Of a stretch of 64,000 nt of DNA, positions 1-42,204 are shown piece by piece. Both the position numbers and the translations under genes were made by a program. The DNA is taken from the NCBI GenBank assembly GCA_951406725.2, contig OX597825.1, positions 1 through 64,000 of the forward strand, in the 5' to 3' direction. Position 1 is the first letter of the stretch; every line of letters starts with the position of its first letter. Source of the stretch: Octopus vulgaris. Its lineage: Eukaryota. The notes beneath the pieces were generated by a model that made no database searches, was not told where the DNA came from, and saw nothing but the letters and a program-made list of their open reading frames with translations.

Positions 1-3000
1 CTAGTGAATTATACAGAATATGCAAAAAGGCGAGGCGAGGCGAGGCTGAAATAGTAAACAGAGTGGCGACTAGGGGGATCAGAATAATAATAATTAATAA
101 ATAATAATAATAAATAGAGATACGGATGAATTAAAGTTCAAAGATTTCTTATCTTGGGATCACTTCGTTTACGGACAGACTTGGCAAAAGGAATTCGGAA
201 TCAAGAATGAGGCAGCTTACTAGCTTAAGTATGCAACTAGCCATGGCGGGTGGTAGGAAGAGAGAAGTCCAGACAGACGACAATGTAACAAGAGGGGGAG
301 AGAAGGGAAGAGAAAAAGAAAAACCCCGCGAAGAATCGGCAGCCAATTTCTAATCAGCCCTGTAAGGGAGATAGATCTTAAATATCTATAATGATAACTA
401 GTGAATTATACAGAATATGCAAAAAACGAGGCGAGGCTGAAATAGTAAACAGAGTGGCGACTAGGGGGATCAGAATAATAATAATTAATAAATAATAATA
501 ATAAATAGAGATACGGATGAATTAAAGTTCAAAGATTTCTTATCTTGAGATCACTTCGTTTACGGACAGACTTGGCAAAAGGAATTCGGAATCAAGAATG
601 AGGCAGGTTACTAGCTTTAAGTATGCAGTTACTAGCTTATGGCATAGCCATGGCGGTAGGAAGAGAGGAGTCCAGACAGACGACAATGTAAAAAGAGGGG
701 GAGAGAAGGGAAGAGAAAAAAAACCCCGCGAAGAATCGGCAGCCAATTTCTAATCAGCCCTGTAAGGGAGATAGATCTTAAATATCTATAACGATAACTA
801 GTGAATTATACAGAATATGCAAAAACGAGGCGAGGCTGAAATAGTAAACAGAGTGGCGACTAGGGGGATCAGAATAATAATAATTAATAAATAATAATAA
901 TAAATAGAGATACGGATGAATTAAAGTTCAAAGATTTCTTATCTTGGGATCACTTCGTTTACGGACAGACTTGGCAAAGGAATTCGGAATCAAGAATGAG
1001 GCAGGTTACTAGCTAATGTATGCAGTTACTAGCTTAAGTATGCATAGCCATGGCGAGGGGTAGGAAGAGAGGAAGTCCAGACAGACGACAATGTAAAAAG
1101 AGGGGGAGAGAAGGAAGAGAAAAACCCCGCGAAGAATCGGCAGCCAATTTCTAATAGCCCTGTAAGGGAGATAGATCTTAAATATCTATAACGATAACTA
1201 GTGAATTATACAGAATATGCAAAAACGAGGCGAGGCTGAAATAGTAAACAGAGTGGCGACTAGGGGGATCAGAATAATAATAATTAATAAATAATAATAA
1301 TAAATAGAGATACGGATGAATTAAAGTTCAAAGATTTCTTATCTTGAGATCACTTCGTTTACGGACAGACTTGGCAAAAGGAATTCGGAATCAAGAATGA
1401 GGCAGGTTACTAGCTTAAGTATGCAGTTACTAGCCATAGCCATGGCGAGGTGGTAGGAAGAGAGAAGTCCAGACAGACGACAATGTAAAAAGAGGGGGAG
1501 AGAAGGGAAGAGAAAAAAAAACCCCGCGAAGAATCGGCAGCCAATTTCTAATCAGCCCTGTAAGGGAGATAGATCTTAAATATCTATAACGATAACTAGT
1601 GAATTATACAGAATATGCAAAACGAGGCGAGGCTGAAATAGTAAACAGAGTGGCGACTAGGGGGATCAGAATAATAATAATTAATAAATAATAATAATAA
1701 ATAGAGATACGGATGAATTAAAGTTCAAAGATTTCTTATCTTGGGATCACTTCGTTTACGGACAGACTTGGCAAAAGGAATTCGGAATCAAGAATGAGGC
1801 AGGTTACTAGCTTAAGTATGCAGTTACTAGCTTAAGTATGCATAGCCATGGCGGGTGGTAGGAAGAGAGGTGTCCAGACAGACGACAATGTAAAAAGAGG
1901 GGAGAGAAGGGAAGAGAAAAAAAAAAACCCCGCGAAGAATCGGCAGCCAATTTCTAATCAGCCCTGTAAGGGAGATAGATCTTAAAAATATCTATAACGA
2001 TAACTAGTGAATTATACAGAATATGCAAAACGAGGCGAGGCGAGGCGAGGCTGAAATAGTAAACAGAGTGGCGACTAGGGGGATCAGAATAATAATAATT
2101 AATAAATAATAATAATAAATAGAGATACGGATGAATTAAAGTTCAAAGATTTCTTATCTTGGGATCACTTCGTTTACGGACAGACTTGGCAAAAGGAATT
2201 CGGAATCAAGAATGAGGCAGCTTACTAGTTTAAGTATGCAATAGCCATGGCGGGTGGTAGGAAGAGAGGTGTCCAGACAGACGACAATGTAAAAAGAGGG
2301 GGAGAGAAGGGAAGAGAAAAAAAACCCGCGAAGAATCGGCAGCCAATTTCTAATCAGCCCTGTAAGGGAGATAGATCTTAAATATCTATAACGATAACTA
2401 GTGAATTATACAGAATATGCAAAAACGAGGCGAGGCTGAAATAGTAAACAGAGTGGCGACTAGGGGGATCAGAATAATAATAATTAATAAATAATAATAA
2501 TAAATAGAGATACGGATGAATTAAAGTTCAAAGATTTCTTATCTTGGGATCACTTCGTTTACGGACAGACTTGGCAAAAGGAATTCGGAATCAAGAATGA
2601 GGCAGGTTACTAGCTTAAGTAAGTATGCATAGCCATGGCGAGGGGTAGGAAGAGAGAGTCCAGACAGACGACAATGTAAAAGAGGGGGAGAGAAGGGAAG
2701 AGAAAAAAAACCCCGCGAAGAATCGGCAGCCAATTTCTAATAAGGGAGATAGATCTTAAATATCTATAACGATAACTAGTGAATTATACAGAATATGCAA
2801 AAACGAGGCGAGGCTGAAATAGTAAACAGAGTGGCGACTAGGGGGATCAGAATAATAATAATTAATAAATAATAATAATAAATAGAGATACGGATGAATT
2901 AAAGTTCAAAGATTTCTTATCTTGGGATCACTTCGTTTACGGACAGACTTGGCAAAAGGAATTCGGAATCAAGAATGAGGCAGGTTACTAGCTTTATGCA

Positions 3001-6000
3001 GTTACTAGCTTAAGTATGCCATAGCCATGGCGAGGTGGTAGGAAGAGAGAAGTCCAGACAGACGACAATGTAAAAAGGGGAGAGAAGGGAAGAGAAAAAG
3101 AAAAACCCCGCGAAGAATCGGCAGCCAATTTCTAATCAGCCCTGTAAGGGAGATAGATCTTAAATATCTATAATGATAACTAGTGAATTATACAGAATAT
3201 GCAAAAACGAGGCGAGGCTGAAATAGTAAACAGAGTGGCGACTAGGGGGATCAGAATAATAATAATTAATAAATAATAATAATAAATAGAGATACGGATG
3301 AATTAAAGTTCAAAGATTTCTTATCTTGGGATCACTTCGTTTACGGACAGACTTGGCAAAAGGAATTCGGAATCAAGAATGAGGCAGCTTACTAGTATTT
3401 ACTAGCTTAAGTATGCAATAGCCATGGCGAGGGTAGGAAGAGAGAAGTCCAGACAGACGACAATGTAACAAGAGGGGGAGAGAAGGGAAGAGAAAAAGAA
3501 AAACCCCGCGAAGAATCGGCAGCCAATTTCTAATAGCCCTGTAAGGGAGATAGATCTTAAATATCTATAACGATAACTAGTGAATTATACAGAATATGCA
3601 AAAACGAGGCGAGGCTGAAATAGTAAACAGAGTGGCGACTAGGGGGATCAGAATAATAATAATTAATAAATAATAATAATAAATAGAGATACGGATGAAT
3701 TAAAGTTCAAAGATTTCTTATCTTGGGATCACTTCGTTTACGGACAGACTTGGCAAAAGGAATTCGGAATCAAGAATGAGGCAGGTTACTAGCTTAAGTA
3801 TGCAGTTACTAGCTTATGGCGTATGCATAGCCATGGCGAGGGGTAGGAGAGAGGTGTCCAGACAGACGACAATGTAAAAGAGGGGGAGAGAAGGGAAGAG
3901 AAAAAACCCCGCGAAGAATCGGCAGCCAATTTCTAATCAGCCCTGTAAGGGAGATAGATCTTAAATATCTATAACGATAACTAGTGAATTATACAGAATA
4001 TGCAAAAAGGCGAGGCGAGGCGAGGCTGAAATAGTAAACAGAGTGGCAACTAGGGGGATCAGAATAATAATAATTAATAAATAATAATAATAAATAGAGA
4101 TACGGATGAATTAAAGTTCAAAGATTTCTTATCTTGGGATCACTTCGTTTACGGACAGACTTGGCAAAAGGAATTCGGAATCAAGAATGAGGCAGGTTAC
4201 TAGCTTAAGTATGCAATAGCCATATGCATGGCGAGGGTAGGAAGAGAGAAGTCCAGACAGACGACAATGTAAAAAGAGGGGGAGAGAAGGGAAGAGAAAA
4301 AAACCCCGCGAAGAATCGGCAGCCAATTTCTAATAAGCCCTGTCAGGGAGATAGATCTTAAATATCTATAACGATAACTAGTGAATTATACAGAATATGC
4401 AAAACGACGAGGCGAGGCGAGGCTGAAATAGTAAACAGAGTGGCGACTAGGGGGATCAGAATAATAATAATTAATAAATAATAATAATAAATAGAGATAC
4501 GGATGAATTAAAGTTCAAAGATTTCTTATCTTGGGATCACTTCGTTTACGGACAGACTTGGCAAAAGGAATTCGGAATCAAGAATGAGGCAGGTTACTAG
4601 CTTAAGTATGCAGTTACTAGCCATGGCGGCGGGGGTAGGAAGAGAGAAGTCCAGACAGACGACAATGTAAAAGAGGGGAGAGAAGGGAAGAGAAAAAACC
4701 CCGCGAAGAATCGGCAGCCAATTTCTATCAGCCCTGTAAGGGAGATAGATCTTAAATATCTATAACGATAACTAGTGAATTATACAGAATATGCAAAAAG
4801 GCGAGGCGAGGCTGAAATAGTAAACAGAGTGGCGACTAGGGGGATCAGAATAATAATAATTAATAAATAATAATAATAAATAGAGATACGGATGAATTAA
4901 AGTTCAAAGATTTCTTATCTTGGGATCACTTCGTTTACGGACAGACTTGGCAAAAGGAATTCGGAATCAAGAATGAGGCAGGTTACTAGCTTAAGTATGC
5001 AGTTCATAGCCATGGCGAGGGGTAGGAAGAGAGAAGTCCAGACAGACGACAATGTAACAAGAGGGGAGAGAAGGGAAGAGAAAAAAACCCCGCGAAGAAT
5101 CGGCAGCCAATTTCTAATCAGCCCTGTAGGGAGATAGATCTTAAATATCTATAATGATAACTAGTGAATTATACAGAATATGCAAAACGAGGCGAGGCGA
5201 GGCTGAAATAGTAAACAGAGTGGCGACTAGGGGGATCAGAATAATAATAATTAATAAATAATAATAATAAATAGAGATACGGATGAATTAAAGTTCAAAG
5301 ATTTCTTATCTTGGGATCACTTCGTTTACGGACAGACTTGGCAAAAGGAATTCGGAATCAAGAATGAGGCAGGTTACTAGCTTAAGTATGCAATAGCCAT
5401 GGCATAGGGCGAGGAAGAGAGAGAGTCCAGACAGACGACAATGTAACAAGAGGGGGAGAGAAGGGAAGAGAAAAAGAAAAACCCCGCGAAGAATCGGCAG
5501 CCAATTTCTAATAAGGGAGATAGATCTTAAATATCTATAACGATAACTAGTGAATTATACAGAATATGCAAAACGAGGCGAGGCGAGGCGAGGCTGAAAT
5601 AGTAAACAGAGTGGCGACTAGGGGGATCAGAATAATAATAATTAATAAATAATAATAATAAATAGAGATACGGATGAATTAAAGTTCAAAGATTTCTTAT
5701 CTTGGGATCACTTCGTTTACGGACAGACTTGGCAAAAGGAATTCGGAATCAAGAATGAGGCAGGTTACTAGCTTAAGTATGCATAGCCATGGCGAGGAGT
5801 AGGAAGAGAGGAGTCCAGACAGACAATGTAAAAAGAGGGGGAGAGAAGGGAAGAGAAAAGAAAAAACCCCGCGAAGAATCGGCAGCCAATTTCTAATCAG
5901 CCCTGTAAGGGAGATAGATCTTAAAAATATCAATAATGATAACTAGTGAATTATACAGAATATGCAAAAAGGCGAGGCGAGGCGAGGCTGAAATAGTAAA

Positions 6001-9000
6001 CAGAGTGGCGACTAGGGGGATCAGAATAATAATAATTAATAAATAATAATAATAAATAGAGATACGGATGAATTAAAGTTCAAAGATTTCTTATCTTGGG
6101 ATCACTTCGTTTACGGACAGACTTGGCAAAAGGAATTCGGAATCAAGAATGAGGCAGCTTACTAGCTTAAGTATGCAATAGCCATGGCGGGTGGTAGGAA
6201 GAGAGAAGTCCAGACAGACGACAATGTAACAAGAGGGGGAGAGAAGGGAAGAGAAAAGAAAACCCCGCGAAGAATCGGCAGCCAATTTCTATAGCCCTGT
6301 AAGGGAGATAGATCTTAAAAAATATCTATAACGATAACTAGTGAATTATACAGAATATGCAAAACGAGGCGAGGCGAGGCGAGGCTGAAATAGTAAACAG
6401 AGTGGCGACTAGGGGGATCAGAATAATAATAATTAATAAATAATAATAATAAATAGAGATACGGATGAATTAAAGTTCAAAGATTTCTTATCTTGAGATC
6501 ACTTCGTTTACGGACAGACTTGGCAAAAGGAATTCGGAATCAAGAATGAGGCAGCTTACTAGTTTAAGTATGCAATAGCCATGGCGGGTGGTAGGAAGAG
6601 AGAAGTCCAGACAGACGACAATGTAACAAGAGGGGGAGAAGGGAAGAGAAGAAGAAAACCCCGCGAAGAATCGGCAGCCAATTTCTATAAGGGAGATAGA
6701 TCTTAAAAAATATCAATAATGATAACTAGTGAATTATACAGAATATGCAAAACGACGAGGCGAGGCGAGGCTGAAATAGTAAACAGAGTGGCGACTAGGG
6801 GGATCAGAATAATAATAATTAATAAATAATAATAATAAATAGAGATACGGATGAATTAAAGTTCAAAGATTTCTTATCTTGAGATCACTTCGTTTACGGA
6901 CAGACTTGGCAAAAGGAATTCGGAATCAAGAATGAGGCAGGTTACTAGTTTAAGTATGCAGTACAGCCATGGCGGGTGGGCGAGGGTAGGAAGAGAGAGT
7001 CCAGACAGACGACAATGTAACAAGAGGGGGAGAGAAGGGAAGAGAAAAAGAAAAACCCCGCGAAGAATCGGCAGCCAATTTCTATAAGGGGAGATAGATC
7101 TTAAAAAATATCAATAATGATAACTAGTGAATTATACAGAATATGCAAAACGAGGCGAGGCGAGGCGAGGCTGAAATAGTAAACAGAGTGGCGACTAGGG
7201 GGATCAGAATAATAATAATTAATAAATAATAATAATAAATAGAGATACGGATGAATTAAAGTTCAAAGATTTCTTATCTTGAGATCACTTCGTTTACGGA
7301 CAGACTTGGCAAAAGGAATTCGGAATCAAGAATGAGGCAGCTTACTAGTTTAAGTATGCAATAGCCATGGCGAGTGGTAGGAAGAGAGAAGTCCAGACAG
7401 ACGACAATGTAACAAGAGGGGAGAGAAGGGAAGAGAAAAAGAAAAACCCCGCGAAGAATCGGCAGCCAATTTCTATCAGCCCTGTAAGGGAGATAGATCT
7501 TAAAAAATATCTATAATGATAACTAGTGAATTATACAGAATATGCAAAACGAGGCGAGGCGAGGCGAGGCTGAAATAGTAAACAGAGTGGCGACTAGGGG
7601 GATCAGAATAATAATAATTAATAAATAATAATAATAAATAGAGATACGGATGAATTAAAGTTCAAAGATTTCTTATCTTGGGATCACTTCGTTTACGGAC
7701 AGACTTGGCAAAAGGAATTCGGAATCAAGAATGAGGCAGCTTACTAGTTTAAGTATGCAATAGCCATGGCGGGTGGTAGGAAGAGAGAAGTCCAGACAGA
7801 CGACAATGTAACAAGAGGGGGAGAGAAGAAGAGAAAAGAAAAAACCCCGCGAAGAATCGGCAGCCAATTTCTAAACCCCGCGAAGAATCGGCAGCCAATT
7901 TCTAATCAGCCCTGTAAGGGAGATAGATCTTAAATATCTATAACGATAACTAGTGAATTATACAGAATATGCAAAAAACGAGGCGAGGCTGAAATAGTAA
8001 ACAGAGTGGCGACTAGGGGGATCAGAATAATAATAATTAATAAATAATAATAATAAATAGAGATACGGATGAATTAAAGTTCAAAGATTTCTTATCTTGA
8101 GATCACTTCGTTTACGGACAGACTTGGCAAAAGGAATTCGGAATCAAGAATGAGGCAGCTTACTAGTTTAAGTATGCAATAGCCATGGCGGGTGGTAGGA
8201 AGAGAGAAGTCCAGACAGACGACAATGTAACAAGAGGGGAGAGAAGGGAAGAGAAAAAAAACCCCGCGAAGAATCGGCAGCCAATTTCTAATAGCCCTGT
8301 AAGGGAGATAGATCTTAAAAAATATCAATAATGATAACTAGTGAATTATACAGAATATGCAAAACGAGGCGAGGCGAGGCGAGGCTGAAATAGTAAACAG
8401 AGTGGCGACTAGGGGGATCAGAATAATAATAATTAATAAATAATAATAATAAATAGAGATACGGATGAATTAAAGTTCAAAGATTTCTTATCTTGAGATC
8501 ACTTCGTTTACGGACAGACTTGGCAAAAGGAATTCGGAATCAAGAATGAGGCAGCTTACTAGTTTGCAGTATGCAATAGCCATGGCGAGGTGGTAGGAAG
8601 AGAGAAGTCCAGACAGACGACAATGTAACAAGAGGGGGAGAGAAGGGAAGAGAAAAAAAAACCCCGCGAAGAATCGGCAGCCAATTTCTAATAAGGGAGA
8701 TAGATCTTAAAAAATATCAATAATGATAACTAGTGAATTATACAGAATATGCAAAACGAGGCGAGGCGAGGCGAGGCTGAAATAGTAAACAGAGTGGCGA
8801 CTAGGGGGATCAGAATAATAATAATTAATAAATAATAATAATAAATAGAGATACGGATGAATTAAAGTTCAAAGATTTCTTATCTTGAGATCACTTCGTT
8901 TACGGACAGACTTGGCAAAAGGAATTCGGAATCAAGAATGAGGCAGCTTACTAGTTTAAGTATGCAAGTATGCTAGCCATGGCGAGGTGGTAGGAAGAGA

Positions 9001-10608
9001 GAAGTCCAGACAGACGACAATGTAACAAGAGGGGGAGAGAAGGAAGAGAAAAAGAAAAACCCCGCGAAGAATCGGCAGCCAATTTCTATAAGGGAGATAG
9101 ATCTTAAATATCAATAATGATAACTAGTGAATTATACAGAATATGCAAAACGAGGCGAGGCGAGGCGAGGCTGAAATAGTAAACAGAGTGGCACTAGGGG
9201 GATCAGAATAATAATAATTAATAAATAATAATAATAAATAGAGATACGGATGAATTAAAGTTCAAAGATTTCTTATCTTGGGATCACTTCGTTTACGGAC
9301 AGACTTGGCAAAAGGAATTCGGAATCAAGAATGAGGCAGCTTACTAGTTTAAGTATGCAATAGCCATGGCGGGTGGTAGGAAGAGAGAAGTCCAGACAGA
9401 CGACAATGTAACAAGAGGGGGAGAGAAGGGAAGAGAAAAAGAAAAACCCCGCGAAGAATCGGCAGCCAATTTCTATAAGGGAGATAGATCTTAAAAATAT
9501 CAATAATGATAACTAGTGAATTATACAGAATATGCAAAACGAGGCGAGGCGAGGCGAGGCTGAAATAGTAAACAGAGTGGCGACTAGGGGGATCAGAATA
9601 ATAATAATTAATAAATAATAATAATAAATAGAGATACGGATGAATTAAAGTTCAAAGATTTCTTATCTTGAGATCACTTCGTTTACGGACAGACTTGGCA
9701 AAAGGAATTCGGAATCAAGAATGAGGCAGCTTACTAGTTTAAGTATGCAATAGCCATGGCGGGTGGTAGGAAGAGAGAAGTCCAGACAGACGACAATGTA
9801 ACAAGAGGGGGAGAGAAGGGAAGAGAAAAGAAAAACCCCGCGAAGAATCGGCAGCCAATTTCTATAAAGGGAGATAGATCTTAAAAAATATCAATAATGA
9901 TAACTAGTGAATTATACAGAATATGCAAAACGAGGCGAGGCGAGGCGAGGCTGAAATAGTAAACAGAGTGGCGACTAGGGGGATCAGAATAATAATAATT
10001 AATAAATAATAATAATAAATAGAGATACGGATGAATTAAAGTTCAAAGATTTCTTATCTTGAGATCACTTCGTTTACGGACAGACTTGGCAAAAGGAATT
10101 CGGAATCAAGAATGAGGCAGCTTACTAGTTTAAGTATGCAATAGCCATGGCGGGTGGTAGGAAGAGAGAAGTCCAGACAGACGACAATGTAACAAGAGGG
10201 GGAGAGAAGGGAAGAGAAAAAGAAAAACCCCGCGAAGAATCGGCAGCCAATTTCTATAAGGGAGATAGATCTTAAAAAATATCAATAATGATAACTAGTG
10301 AATTATACAGAATATGCAAAACGAGGCGAGGCGAGGCGAGGCTGAAATAGTAAACAGAGTGGCGACTAGGGGGATCAGAATAATAATAATTAATAAATAA
10401 TAATAATAAATAGAGATACGGATGAATTAAAGTTCAAAGATTTCTTATCTTGAGATCACTTCGTTTACGGACAGACTTGGCAAAAGGAATTCGGAATCAA
10501 GAATGAGGCAGCTTACTAGTTTAAGTATGCAATAGCCATGGCGGGTGGTAGGAAGAGAGAAGTCCAGACAGACGACAATGTAACAAGAGGGGGAGAGAAG
10601 GGAAGAGA
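1..10608. repeat. Tandem satellite array, ~380-425 bp unit (typically ~395 bp), ~27 copies; continues beyond the left edge of the window
   Basis: Marker ctagtgaattatacagaatatgc recurs at about 1, 398, 798, 1198, 1596 ... 9904 and 10295. The last unit is truncated at ~10608 by a short (TA)n. Confidence 0.98.
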
Positions 10609-13566: not shown

Positions 13567-13616
<50 letters not shown>

Positions 13617-13654
13617 CGAAGGGGAGACAAACACCCCCAACCGCTGGAACTGCA

Positions 13655-13700
13655 TCTAGGGACACCGTGTTTCAGGATCATTGTCCTTCATCAGCCTAGA
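13655..13700 (-). ncRNA. Type I hammerhead ribozyme (canonical core)
   Basis: Minus strand reads UCUAGG CUGAUGA AGGA caauga UCCU GAAAC acggu GUC CCUAGA: 6-bp stem I, 4-bp stem II, short stem III, GUC cleavage triplet. Confidence 0.9.
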
Positions 13701-14018
13701 GTAGCAGACACCGGTCAGCTGGCAATATCTGTCTCGACTTCGTATCTGTATATATCTATAGTCAGTGAAGTCTATTCACTGATTATCAAAAAAAGAAATA
13801 TTGAGTTTCTAAATCTCTCGTAGAGAGGTGTACGGTGGTGGAGCGATATAATGGTTGTATACTGTCAATCTAACAAGAACGTGACAGTAGGGGGTACACC
13901 ACCGTTATATAGCCCTAGGAGGCATCGAACGCCTCCTGACAGCTTCGACACATTTTATCCTGTGTCCTTATATACACATACGAAGGGGAGACAAACACCC
14001 CCAACCGCCGGAACTGCA

Positions 14019-14064
14019 TCTAGGGACACCGTGTTTCAATATCATTGTCCTTCATCGGCCTAGA
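14019..14064 (-). ncRNA. Degenerate second copy of the same hammerhead
   Basis: Core is mutated to CCGAUGA and the 3' arm of stem II to UAUU; probably inactive. Confidence 0.65.
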
Positions 14065-39938: not shown

Positions 39939-39966
39939 CCTTCTATATAATAAAATAAAATATATA

Positions 39967-40022
<56 letters not shown>

Positions 40023-40051
40023 AATTAAGATTTGGCTACTGGTTTGGCTAC

Positions 40052-40093
40052 GCTGCATTGAAAAGGGGCAATACCCCGAAACGCGTCTGTAGC
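40052..40093 (+). ncRNA. Minimal type I hammerhead, variant core UUGAAAA
   Basis: GCUGCA UUGAAAA GGGG caaua CCCC GAAAC gc GUC UGUAGC. Confidence 0.78.
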
Positions 40094-40414
40094 TGCCGGC
40101 CAAGTAGTGTGGAGCGACTGACCTCCCTTGTTCAAAGGTTATATGGATACAGTTTGTGTATCAAATAGCTAACTTAAGGCGATGGCCTCATGGAGCTAAT
40201 AAGCGGTCAGCTTTATTCTTATTTTTATAAGAATGCCATATTAGTATGGCGATAACTAATATTTTCCGGGAACGCTGCCGTTGTTCTCTTTTAGAGAGAC
40301 TTAGTAATTTTAATATTTCTATTATTGAAAACAAGTGGATGTATTCCACCGAAGCTAGGTAAATAAAACCTTTGAACAGAGATTGTCAGAAGCGACACCT
40401 ACTGGTTTGGCTAC

Positions 40415-40456
40415 GCTGCATTGAAAAGGGGCAATACCCCGAAACGCGTCTGTAGC
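40415..40456 (+). ncRNA. Minimal type I hammerhead, variant core UUGAAAA (second tandem copy)
   Basis: Identical to 40052-40093. Confidence 0.78.
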
Positions 40457-40694
40457 TGCCGGCCAAGTAGTGTGGAGCGACTGACCTCCCTTGTTCAAAG
40501 GTTGTATGGATACAGTTTGTGTATCAAATAGCTAACTTAAGGCGATGGCCTCATGGAGCTAATAAGCGGTCAGCTTTATTCTTATTTTTTATAAGAATGC
40601 CATATTAGTATGGCGATAACTAATATTTTCCGGGAACGCTGCCGTTGTTCTCTTTTAGAGAGACTTAGTAATTTTAATATTTCTATTATATATG

Positions 40695-40725
<31 letters not shown>

Positions 40726-40770
40726 GTATATATATATGTATATATATATATATATATATGTATAAAACCT

Positions 40771-42204
40771 TAAATCCTTAAAAATGTTTTAGCCCGAAGG
40801 CCGCGGCCATGCTGGGGCACCACCGCTGAATGAGCTACACTAGTTTGTGAATCCACCTCTGATACGTGGCACTTGATCAACAAGGGAGTTCGATGCTGCT
40901 GCCCGCATCCGTGTCTCCTGTCGTGAGGTAGGTTCATCTGGGACTCCCAACAAGAAGAGATCCAGTTTAGTTTTAAAGAAACCCACATCCACACCATGTA
41001 AGTCTCTCAGGCATTTAGGGAGGATGTTAAAGAGCTGTGGTCCTCTGAAACCCAAGCTGTTGCAGTATCTGGACCTGTATTTTGATGGTGATGTTGGAAT
41101 CCTTGGCACCACGCATCGGCGCCCCGTTCTGCGGTTGGAGTAACTTTGAATGCCAAAGTTTGGGACAAGACCCTCCAGGATTTTCCAGATGTATATCACT
41201 GCATATCTCTCCCGCCTCCGCTCCAGGGAGAAGAGGTTTAATACCTTCAGTCTTTCCCAGTAGCTGACATTTTGCATTGAGACGATTTTCTTTGTGTAGC
41301 TTCTCTGAGTTGCTTCGAGTTCTGCTGTTTGTTTTATATTGTGTGGTGACCAAAGTTGGGAGCAGTAGTCCAAGCGGCTGAGGACGAATGTTTTCCATAG
41401 GACCATCAGTGTCTCCTTCTCTCTTGTTCTGAAAGTTCGGAGAATCCATCCAGCTAGCCGTCTGCATTTTATCACCAGATTAGCAATATGCATTTGGAAA
41501 GATGCATCATTGCTCATGTCAATGCCCAGGTCACGCACTGATTTTGACTCAGGGATTGCAATTCTTCCTGGGCCAGTGTATCCAGTCTTCACGTCATTTA
41601 CCTTTGTGTGCCAGTAGCGCAGGGCCTGGAACTTACCTGCATTAAACTGCATGTTGTTGTCCTCAGCCCACCTGTATATTGTGTCCAGCTCATGTTGCAG
41701 ATGCGCAATATTTTCAGGGTTTTGTATTGCGTGGGAGACTTTTGTGTCATCTGCATAGCTAGCAAGGGTGGTCATCGTAGCAACTGAAGGCATGTCTGAA
41801 AGGGCCACTATGAACATCAGTGGCCCCAAGACAGTGCCCTGTGGGACACCGCTTGTTATTTGCGTTTCCTTGGAGGTGGCTCCATTGCTCACAACTGCCT
41901 GTTTTCTGTCTTTTAGGAAGTTGTGCAGCCACTCTCCAAGTTTCCCGCCTATGCCGAGACCACGCAGTTTGTGACAGATCATACCATGGTCGACTTTATC
42001 AAAGGCTTTTGCAAAGTCAAGATATATTACATCCACTTTTCAGCCATTTAGTAGCTGTTTCAACACCCAGTCATAGTGTTGCAGGAGCTGTGTTAGGCAG
42101 CCTCTACCTGGTCGAAATCCATGCTGGGTGTCAGACAGTAAGTCATTTTCTTCAAGGAACATGATTAGTTTCTTACGGACTATTCGTTCCATGACTTTGC
42201 TGAT
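40771..42204 (-). mobile_element. 5'-truncated CR1-group LINE (RT), sister subfamily of the 14.7 kb and 18.6 kb elements
   Basis: ORF 40840..42036 has YLDFAKAFDKVDH, SGVPQGTVLGP and YADDTK. Confidence 0.93.

Follow-up and report, generated by a model that had tools for sequence, protein, structure and literature searches.

A young dispersed 363-nt hammerhead repeat family in Octopus vulgaris, likely a non-autonomous passenger of Neptune-type Penelope-like retrotransposons

Two hammerheads and the family to which they belong

As listed in Table 1, two identical 72-nt type I hammerheads lie 363 nt apart on the plus strand of the window, that is, the whole 64,000-nt stretch of Octopus vulgaris DNA that was analysed (contig OX597825.1). 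Direct comparison confirmed the original prediction that the two are identical and one unit apart. The second unit differs from the first by one substitution and one inserted T. The locus had also been described as a tandem array; it does carry two hammerheads at this spacing, but it comprises only 1.8 units, the second being partial (290 of 363). This copy is a single arm of 654 nt that is truncated at its 5′ end at about 40036, ends at the fixed 3′ site S2 described below, and is without an inverted arm.

Each hammerhead has a long stem I with an internal loop, a stem II of four pairs with the loop CAAUA, and a stem III consisting of one A-U pair over a CGCG loop. The earlier label "minimal" does not suit a ribozyme with this extended stem I and this loop II. 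As had been supposed, the ACGCGU stem III is too short alone and is not formed in cis. The build is that of a canonical metazoan type I hammerhead with a newt-like one-pair stem III. An Rfam search of the locus returned no hammerhead at the gathering score or at E values up to 10, which is expected because of the variant core and the minimal stem III and lowers the type I assignment little.

Table 1. Features of the retrozyme insertion in the window
Feature	Position	Strand	Remark
(TA)n upstream of the insertion	39960..40023		part of inferred target
Retrozyme unit 1	40036..40398	+	363 nt, 40.8% GC
Hammerhead 1	40036..40107	+	type I, extended stem I
Hammerhead 1 core, U3-U4-G5-A6-A7-A8-A9	40058-40064	+	
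Hammerhead 1 stem II	40065-40077	+	GGGG-CAAUA-CCCC
Hammerhead 1 GAAA	40078-40081	+	
Hammerhead 1 palindrome	40081-40086	+	self-complementary hexamer ACGCGU
Hammerhead 1 GUC end	after 40087	+	predicted cut
Predicted 363-nt monomer or circle between the two cuts	40088..40450	+	strongly self-paired
Long rod stem	40129..40378	+	predicted fold; 40129-40140 with 40367-40378, closes branched domain
Fixed 3′ site S1 (unit position 227)	40262 (unit 1), 40626 (unit 2)	+	
Fixed 3′ site S2 (unit position 290)	40325 (unit 1), 40689 (unit 2)	+	
Retrozyme unit 2, partial (unit positions 1-290)	40399..40689	+	stops at fixed 3′ site S2
Hammerhead 2	40399..40470	+	identical to hammerhead 1
Hammerhead 2 core, U3-U4-G5-A6-A7-A8-A9	40421-40427	+	
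Hammerhead 2 GUC end	after 40450	+	predicted cut
63-nt "tail" between S1 and S2	40627..40689	+	
(TA)n entered by the 3′ end of the insertion	40687..40764		

Is this repeat common in the genome? Counts were made over the 2.8-Gb genome (227 contigs). The exact 35-nt core occurs 769 times while the reversed control gave 0, so that the motif is not a matter of chance. A subfamily with a different N7 adds at least 233 further cores, and a looser pattern gave 209 more matches (control 5), mostly further subfamilies and an older family. For a 25-mer taken from mid-unit, 2377 occurrences were counted. Units that are 99-100% identical are found on many chromosomes, and the full monomers (54 distinct) are 343-366 nt long and 83-100% alike. 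The window locus is a single insertion belonging to a young family of non-LTR retrozymes that is dispersed over the genome in more than a thousand units.

The unit has the properties by which retrozymes are recognised. Tandem units within 150-450 bp, each with a type I hammerhead, occur at many loci, GC content is under 50%, the longest ATG frame on the plus strand is 38 aa, the minus strand has none of 30 aa, and no LTR layout was seen, PBS and PPT being outside the search. The metazoan non-LTR retrozymes of coral, mussel, and axolotl likewise have tandem units of 150-450 bp that carry a type I hammerhead, a GC content below 50%, no ORF, a self-paired predicted circle, and PLEs (Penelope-like retrotransposons) in the same genome, and the mussel units are 350-390 bp in length (PMC7229834). 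They differ from the present family, in which the U3-A8 core is fixed over the whole clade. Its insertions, moreover, are short pairs of arms arranged head to head whose 3′ ends lie at two fixed sites in (TA)n, a feature absent from the covered parts of the main text of that paper. The unit is also present in contigs from four runs presumed to be RNA (three organism labels), which are uninformative on level, ends, and circularity; one run's contigs span the second hammerhead.

The U3-A8 core and its predicted folds

Both hammerheads read U3 and A8, in agreement with the C3U and G8A changes noted in the original prediction. In an anchor test of 30 loci, whose selection was independent of the core, all 19 hammerheads located by flanking anchors have kept the U3-A8 core, the GAAA, and the GUC. 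In an alignment of 15 hand-picked variants (14 distinct, including one C3-G8 row), 99.2% of the cells were paired, a value reached in none of 500 shuffles, while pairing dropped to 27-54% in slid controls. Both-sided changes were found in 10 of the 17 pairs, three of them within the U3-A8 clade and seven via the single C3-G8 row. In accordance with a type I hammerhead, stems I and II and the G10.1-C11.1 pair are backed by covariation, and the core boxes are conserved with a Watson-Crick 3-8 pair, the GAAA, and an NUH.

It was revealed that two C3-G8 families are homologous to the family over the unit (z 10 and 14). One of them has its stem III hexamer replaced by another self-complementary hexamer, and this exchange favours pairing between two ribozymes. 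The covariation, together with the C3-G8 homologues having another self-complementary stem III, supports the claim that U3-A8 is compensatory. The family's stem II was found in none of 16 C3-G8 cores that precede the same stem III. The U3-A8 ribozyme is likely to be active.

The retrozyme class, natural U3-A8 cores, and cleavage as a dimer have already been published (PMC7229834, PMC3088659, PMC4209133). Newt satellite 2 and axolotl HHR_Amex1 likewise have a one-pair stem III, a palindromic tetraloop, and a predicted dimer (PMC7229834), but their cores are C3-G8, whereas the octopus family has U3-A8 and dispersed insertions of the PLE type. The same compensated U3-A8 pair exists in natural cores (PMC3088659) and in the minimal hammerheads of the Schistosoma Cercyon PLE, with about 1,300 U3-A8 motifs in S. 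mansoni (PMC4209133). The Cercyon motifs are heterogeneous, minimal, and mostly single, in contrast to the full type I hammerheads in near-identical tandem units found here. For U3-A8 catalysis, the clade provides an extensive natural test set, and C3-G8 relatives occur alongside it in the genome. Since searches with Rfam and with a CUGANGA descriptor miss this family, the number of such families is probably underestimated.

The unconstrained fold of 40036-40480 is a double hammerhead with pair probabilities of 0.83-1.0, in which six pairs form between the two palindromes and the stem I strands are swapped. The double hammerhead proposed earlier was thus recovered for this segment, but its probability falls to 0.4-0.5 with a transcript extended to 40600 and to 0 for the whole locus. 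Among eight natural dimers, four gave the complete double hammerhead and six formed stem III in trans with P of at least 0.58, depending on the context; the complete fold was absent in the C3-G8 family. The predicted monomer is more self-paired than its shuffles (z -7.5, 0 of 100 shuffles), and strong self-pairing was found in four subfamilies (z -5.6 to -10.1). Folded as a circle, the monomer has -119.5 kcal/mol (z -7.0, 40 shuffles), and the predicted folds give a stable self-paired circle that leaves the hammerhead free, as in other retrozymes.

A hotspot of 5′ truncation was observed at unit positions 89-97 (window 40124-40132; 21 observed versus 3.1 expected). It falls within the 5′ strand of the rod stem, at a 6-nt palindrome in most subfamilies, and may be due to stalling of reverse transcriptase or to end joining.

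Insertion anatomy and the candidate mobiliser

Ninety-two loci of the youngest group were examined in two sets, one comprising every mid-unit pattern match in the first 117 Mb of chromosome contig C1 (44 loci) and the other selected on the core (48 loci). There were 64 head-to-head pairs, 25 single arms, and 3 others. The 3′ ends lie at S1 or S2 rather than at the ribozyme cut. Of 153 S1 or S2 ends, 138 continue into (TA)n; I infer that the two sites are internal start sites of reverse transcription. One S1 end and one S2 end were found in 59 of the 64 pairs (binomial P 2e-18), one atypical end in the remaining 5, and the same end twice in none. The single S1/S1 pair (L254) came from a separately chosen set. 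One end per site, and never the same site twice in 64 pairs, is the Penelope "tail" signature.

The arm junctions mostly overlap by 1-6 nt. The cut site is crossed by 59 of 113 unconditioned arms; 47 of the 113 are longer than one unit, and 14 are longer than two. Arms of up to 5.5 units occur (L077). Opposite arms within a locus diverge by 0.76%, compared with 2.1% between loci. In 10 of 68 loci, a variant private to the locus relative to the sample is present in every pass, and in 6 of them it extends across both arms. The closeness of the arms and the private variants point to one template molecule that was read repeatedly, a pattern that gene conversion could mimic. Target-site duplications longer than 4 bp are unreadable because the ends lie in (TA)n. 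An excess of 5′ ends at unit positions 48-60 (8 observed versus 3.6 expected; P 0.03 in one of 15 windows, uncorrected), with 7 copies whose start is precisely position 53, where about 2.1-2.6 were expected (denominator 1234), gives a weak genomic hint of cutting.

The known signature of PLEs consists of inverted, 5′-truncated arms, a tail at one end, and a bias to (TA)n (PMC8557442). In work with a purified PLE protein, both strands were cut and cDNA synthesis began at two internal RNA sites, which mark the limits of the tail (PMC11167929). Neptune and Poseidon PAc resemble the retrozyme in the inverted 5′-truncated arm and the tail at one end, and PLEs also share with it an AT-rich or (TA)n target and a hammerhead upstream of the start sites (PMC11167929, PMC8557442). 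The retrozyme differs from PLEs in having no ORF and no homology to the pLTRs tested, and its tail is 63 nt compared with 30-40 nt in those papers.

Young families of the Neptune type, with open frames of up to 1091 aa, exist in the genome. The Neptune label comes from blastp grouping and from motifs read by eye against PMC8557442, and a Pfam search of the Neptune frame in the window gave no match. Screening 212 overlapping retrozyme locus records against the Neptune families yielded one retrozyme-Neptune insertion (L133, G000:C2:202267797-202268875). It consists of a retrozyme arm starting from S1, a 6-nt fold-back, and a Neptune arm that ends at its own tail end; the junction is without TA, which is present only outside. 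At 99% identity, the Neptune arm matches the 3′ terminus of a Neptune copy that has an RT, a zinc-finger-like CxC..CxxC linker, and a GIY-YIG domain. This Neptune family, sampled at 20 loci, has a tail of 111 nt, and all 7 of its inverted pairs combine the two kinds of end; a microsatellite target is common to the retrozyme and Neptune ends. The single hybrid is suggestive evidence for Neptune as the mobiliser. Comparison of the unit with four Neptune termini gave no sequence likeness (z -0.3 to 2.1), so that recognition would be by structure or short motifs. Matches of 63-64% between the unit and the antisense of Neptune frames were rejected as weak, AT-rich chance.

The family is probably a non-autonomous passenger of Neptune-type PLEs. 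The shape of the insertions and the one that is half repeat and half Neptune make it likely that the retrozyme is pasted in by the Neptune enzyme copying a small RNA circle. A two-unit transcript is predicted to fold into the double hammerhead, with a 6-bp stem III between the palindromes, and to cut after 40087 and 40450, which would free the 363-nt monomer. By analogy with other retrozymes (PMC7229834), the monomer would be circularised, a host RtcB-type ligase being the probable enzyme. Both strands of the (TA)n target may then be nicked by a Neptune RT/GIY-YIG protein, which probably acts as a dimer and would prime two cDNAs at the internal sites 227 and 290 of the same RNA. Each cDNA would be extended around the template over a distance that differs from case to case, and microhomology of a few bases would join the two growing ends. 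The product would be a head-to-head arrangement of tandem arms or, as at the window locus, one arm alone. The full version, in which a Neptune dimer reads a ribozyme-made 363-nt circle sharing no sequence with its own RNA, with two-site priming and rolling synthesis, is put forward tentatively, as something rather short of an even chance.

Can other explanations account for these data? An ordinary DNA satellite or a segmental duplication would agree with units in tandem, head to tail, but is hardly tenable: the arrays are short and dispersed, their flanks are unrelated, their 3′ ends are fixed and their 5′ ends vary, and inverted arms occur. These end statistics refute it. It is also very unlikely that the U3-A8 ribozyme is catalytically dead or negligible and that the family spreads only via a tail recognised by a PLE. 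A stem III of one pair, the poor cleavage of newt-type monomers (6% in 1 h; PMC7229834), and the inactivity of most tested Xenopus dimers (10.64898/2026.07.22.740005) would fit a dead ribozyme. However, subfamilies 83-100% alike have changed at N7, at wobble positions, and at compensated pairs while the core stayed fixed, and in vitro activity has been reported for U3-A8 cores (PMC3088659).

Another element might mobilise the family (a LINE, or a PLE of the Poseidon, Naiad, or unsampled Neptune type), in which case the hybrid would represent two adjacent insertions that a deletion has fused. This is unlikely, even with a single hybrid among the 212 overlapping records, no pLTR homology, Naiads that also favour (TA)n and form tails (PMC8557442), and a scoring that covered some of the many PLE candidates, since the hybrid junction lacks TA, has a fold-back, and keeps the S1 plus S2 rule across two RNAs. 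Poseidon-like PLEs are present in the genome, but the sampled family is an old one, its copies being about 64-85% identical and most of them interrupted by stops, and the poly(A) and fixed single 3′ end that LINE passengers would show are absent. Alternatively, the same PLE machinery may have used the uncleaved multimeric transcript of an array, any circles being a by-product. In the Poseidon PAc study, insertion used unprocessed RNA and did not need hammerhead cleavage (PMC11167929); the 59 of 113 arms that pass through the cleavage site could come from a multimer just as readily as from a circle, and the excess of 5′ ends at that site is weak. This reading is nevertheless rather improbable in view of the arms of up to 5.5 units, the private variants in all passes and in both arms, the strong self-pairing of the monomer in four subfamilies, and a hammerhead maintained by covariation.

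Passenger status under PLEs has also been proposed for Xenopus retrozymes, based on co-occurrence and pLTR homology, and eight of nine predicted dimers there were without cleavage in vitro (10.64898/2026.07.22.740005). The octopus case is argued from insertion anatomy and the hybrid instead, and while Xenopus retrozyme-pLTR pairs share sequence, the present unit is unlike the four Neptune termini. The words "tail" and "head-to-head" are absent from the main text of that preprint. Non-autonomous PLE passengers with tandem insertions are known from Chlamydomonas (PMC8557442). A literature search turned up neither this family nor a two-end rule for retrozymes nor a hybrid of retrozyme and PLE, and the supplement of PMC7229834 may list relatives. 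The new part is the insertion anatomy. Until now, the case for a mobiliser of animal retrozymes has been based solely on co-occurrence and pLTR likeness; the genomic evidence for it is unusually direct here. The family, with over a thousand young units, yields a two-end rule that is close to absolute, which bears on the standing question of how PLEs build inverted, tailed insertions. With a named candidate enzyme that has a young open frame, and a 363-nt substrate, the retrozyme-PLE question is directly testable. If the proposed route through Neptune is true, the retrozyme would be a natural minimal cargo that defines a start signal read by structure, and the one-of-each rule would explain the formation of all head-to-head PLE insertions.

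Other hammerhead repeats and neighbouring elements

Several other repeats were observed. A young C3-G8 retrozyme family of 359 nt (L141, L189-L193, L198) has the same insertion anatomy; the two end sites are 233 and 280, all 6 inverted loci have one end at each, and most ends run into (TA)n. A further family (L180-L188), old, diverged, and seemingly unrelated, consists of single U3-A8 hammerheads with the stem III hexamer of the 363-nt unit; no PLE frame was found within 8 kb of it at 10 loci. A pair of U3-A8 motifs 5.3 kb apart, which looked like pLTRs, turned out to be a 3.3-kb segmental duplication.

The window itself begins, at the very start of the contig, with a 391-bp satellite of 26.8 copies (1-10608), in which a scan gave no hammerhead-like fold. 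A distant hammerhead repeat on the minus strand (about 13600-14240) has a 364-nt period and a C3-G8 core, with one hammerhead intact at 13694 and the other with a changed U4; it is homologous to the 363-nt unit (z 13.9). A truncated Neptune-type PLE on the minus strand (about 22887-24910) has a 559-aa frame, an inverted arm, a tail of about 85 nt, and a hammerhead of its own in which loop II is long, and belongs to a young family with frames of up to at least 842 aa. Close to it lies a second insertion of the retrozyme clade (25025-25548, plus strand), from a subfamily about 85% alike with the core UUGACAA at 25340; it comprises 1.45 units and ends at S1 in (TA)n. Pieces of LINE reverse transcriptase are present at 14600-16444, 18817-21807, and about 40800-42200, and the window also contains many (TA)n runs and recurring SINE-like repeats.
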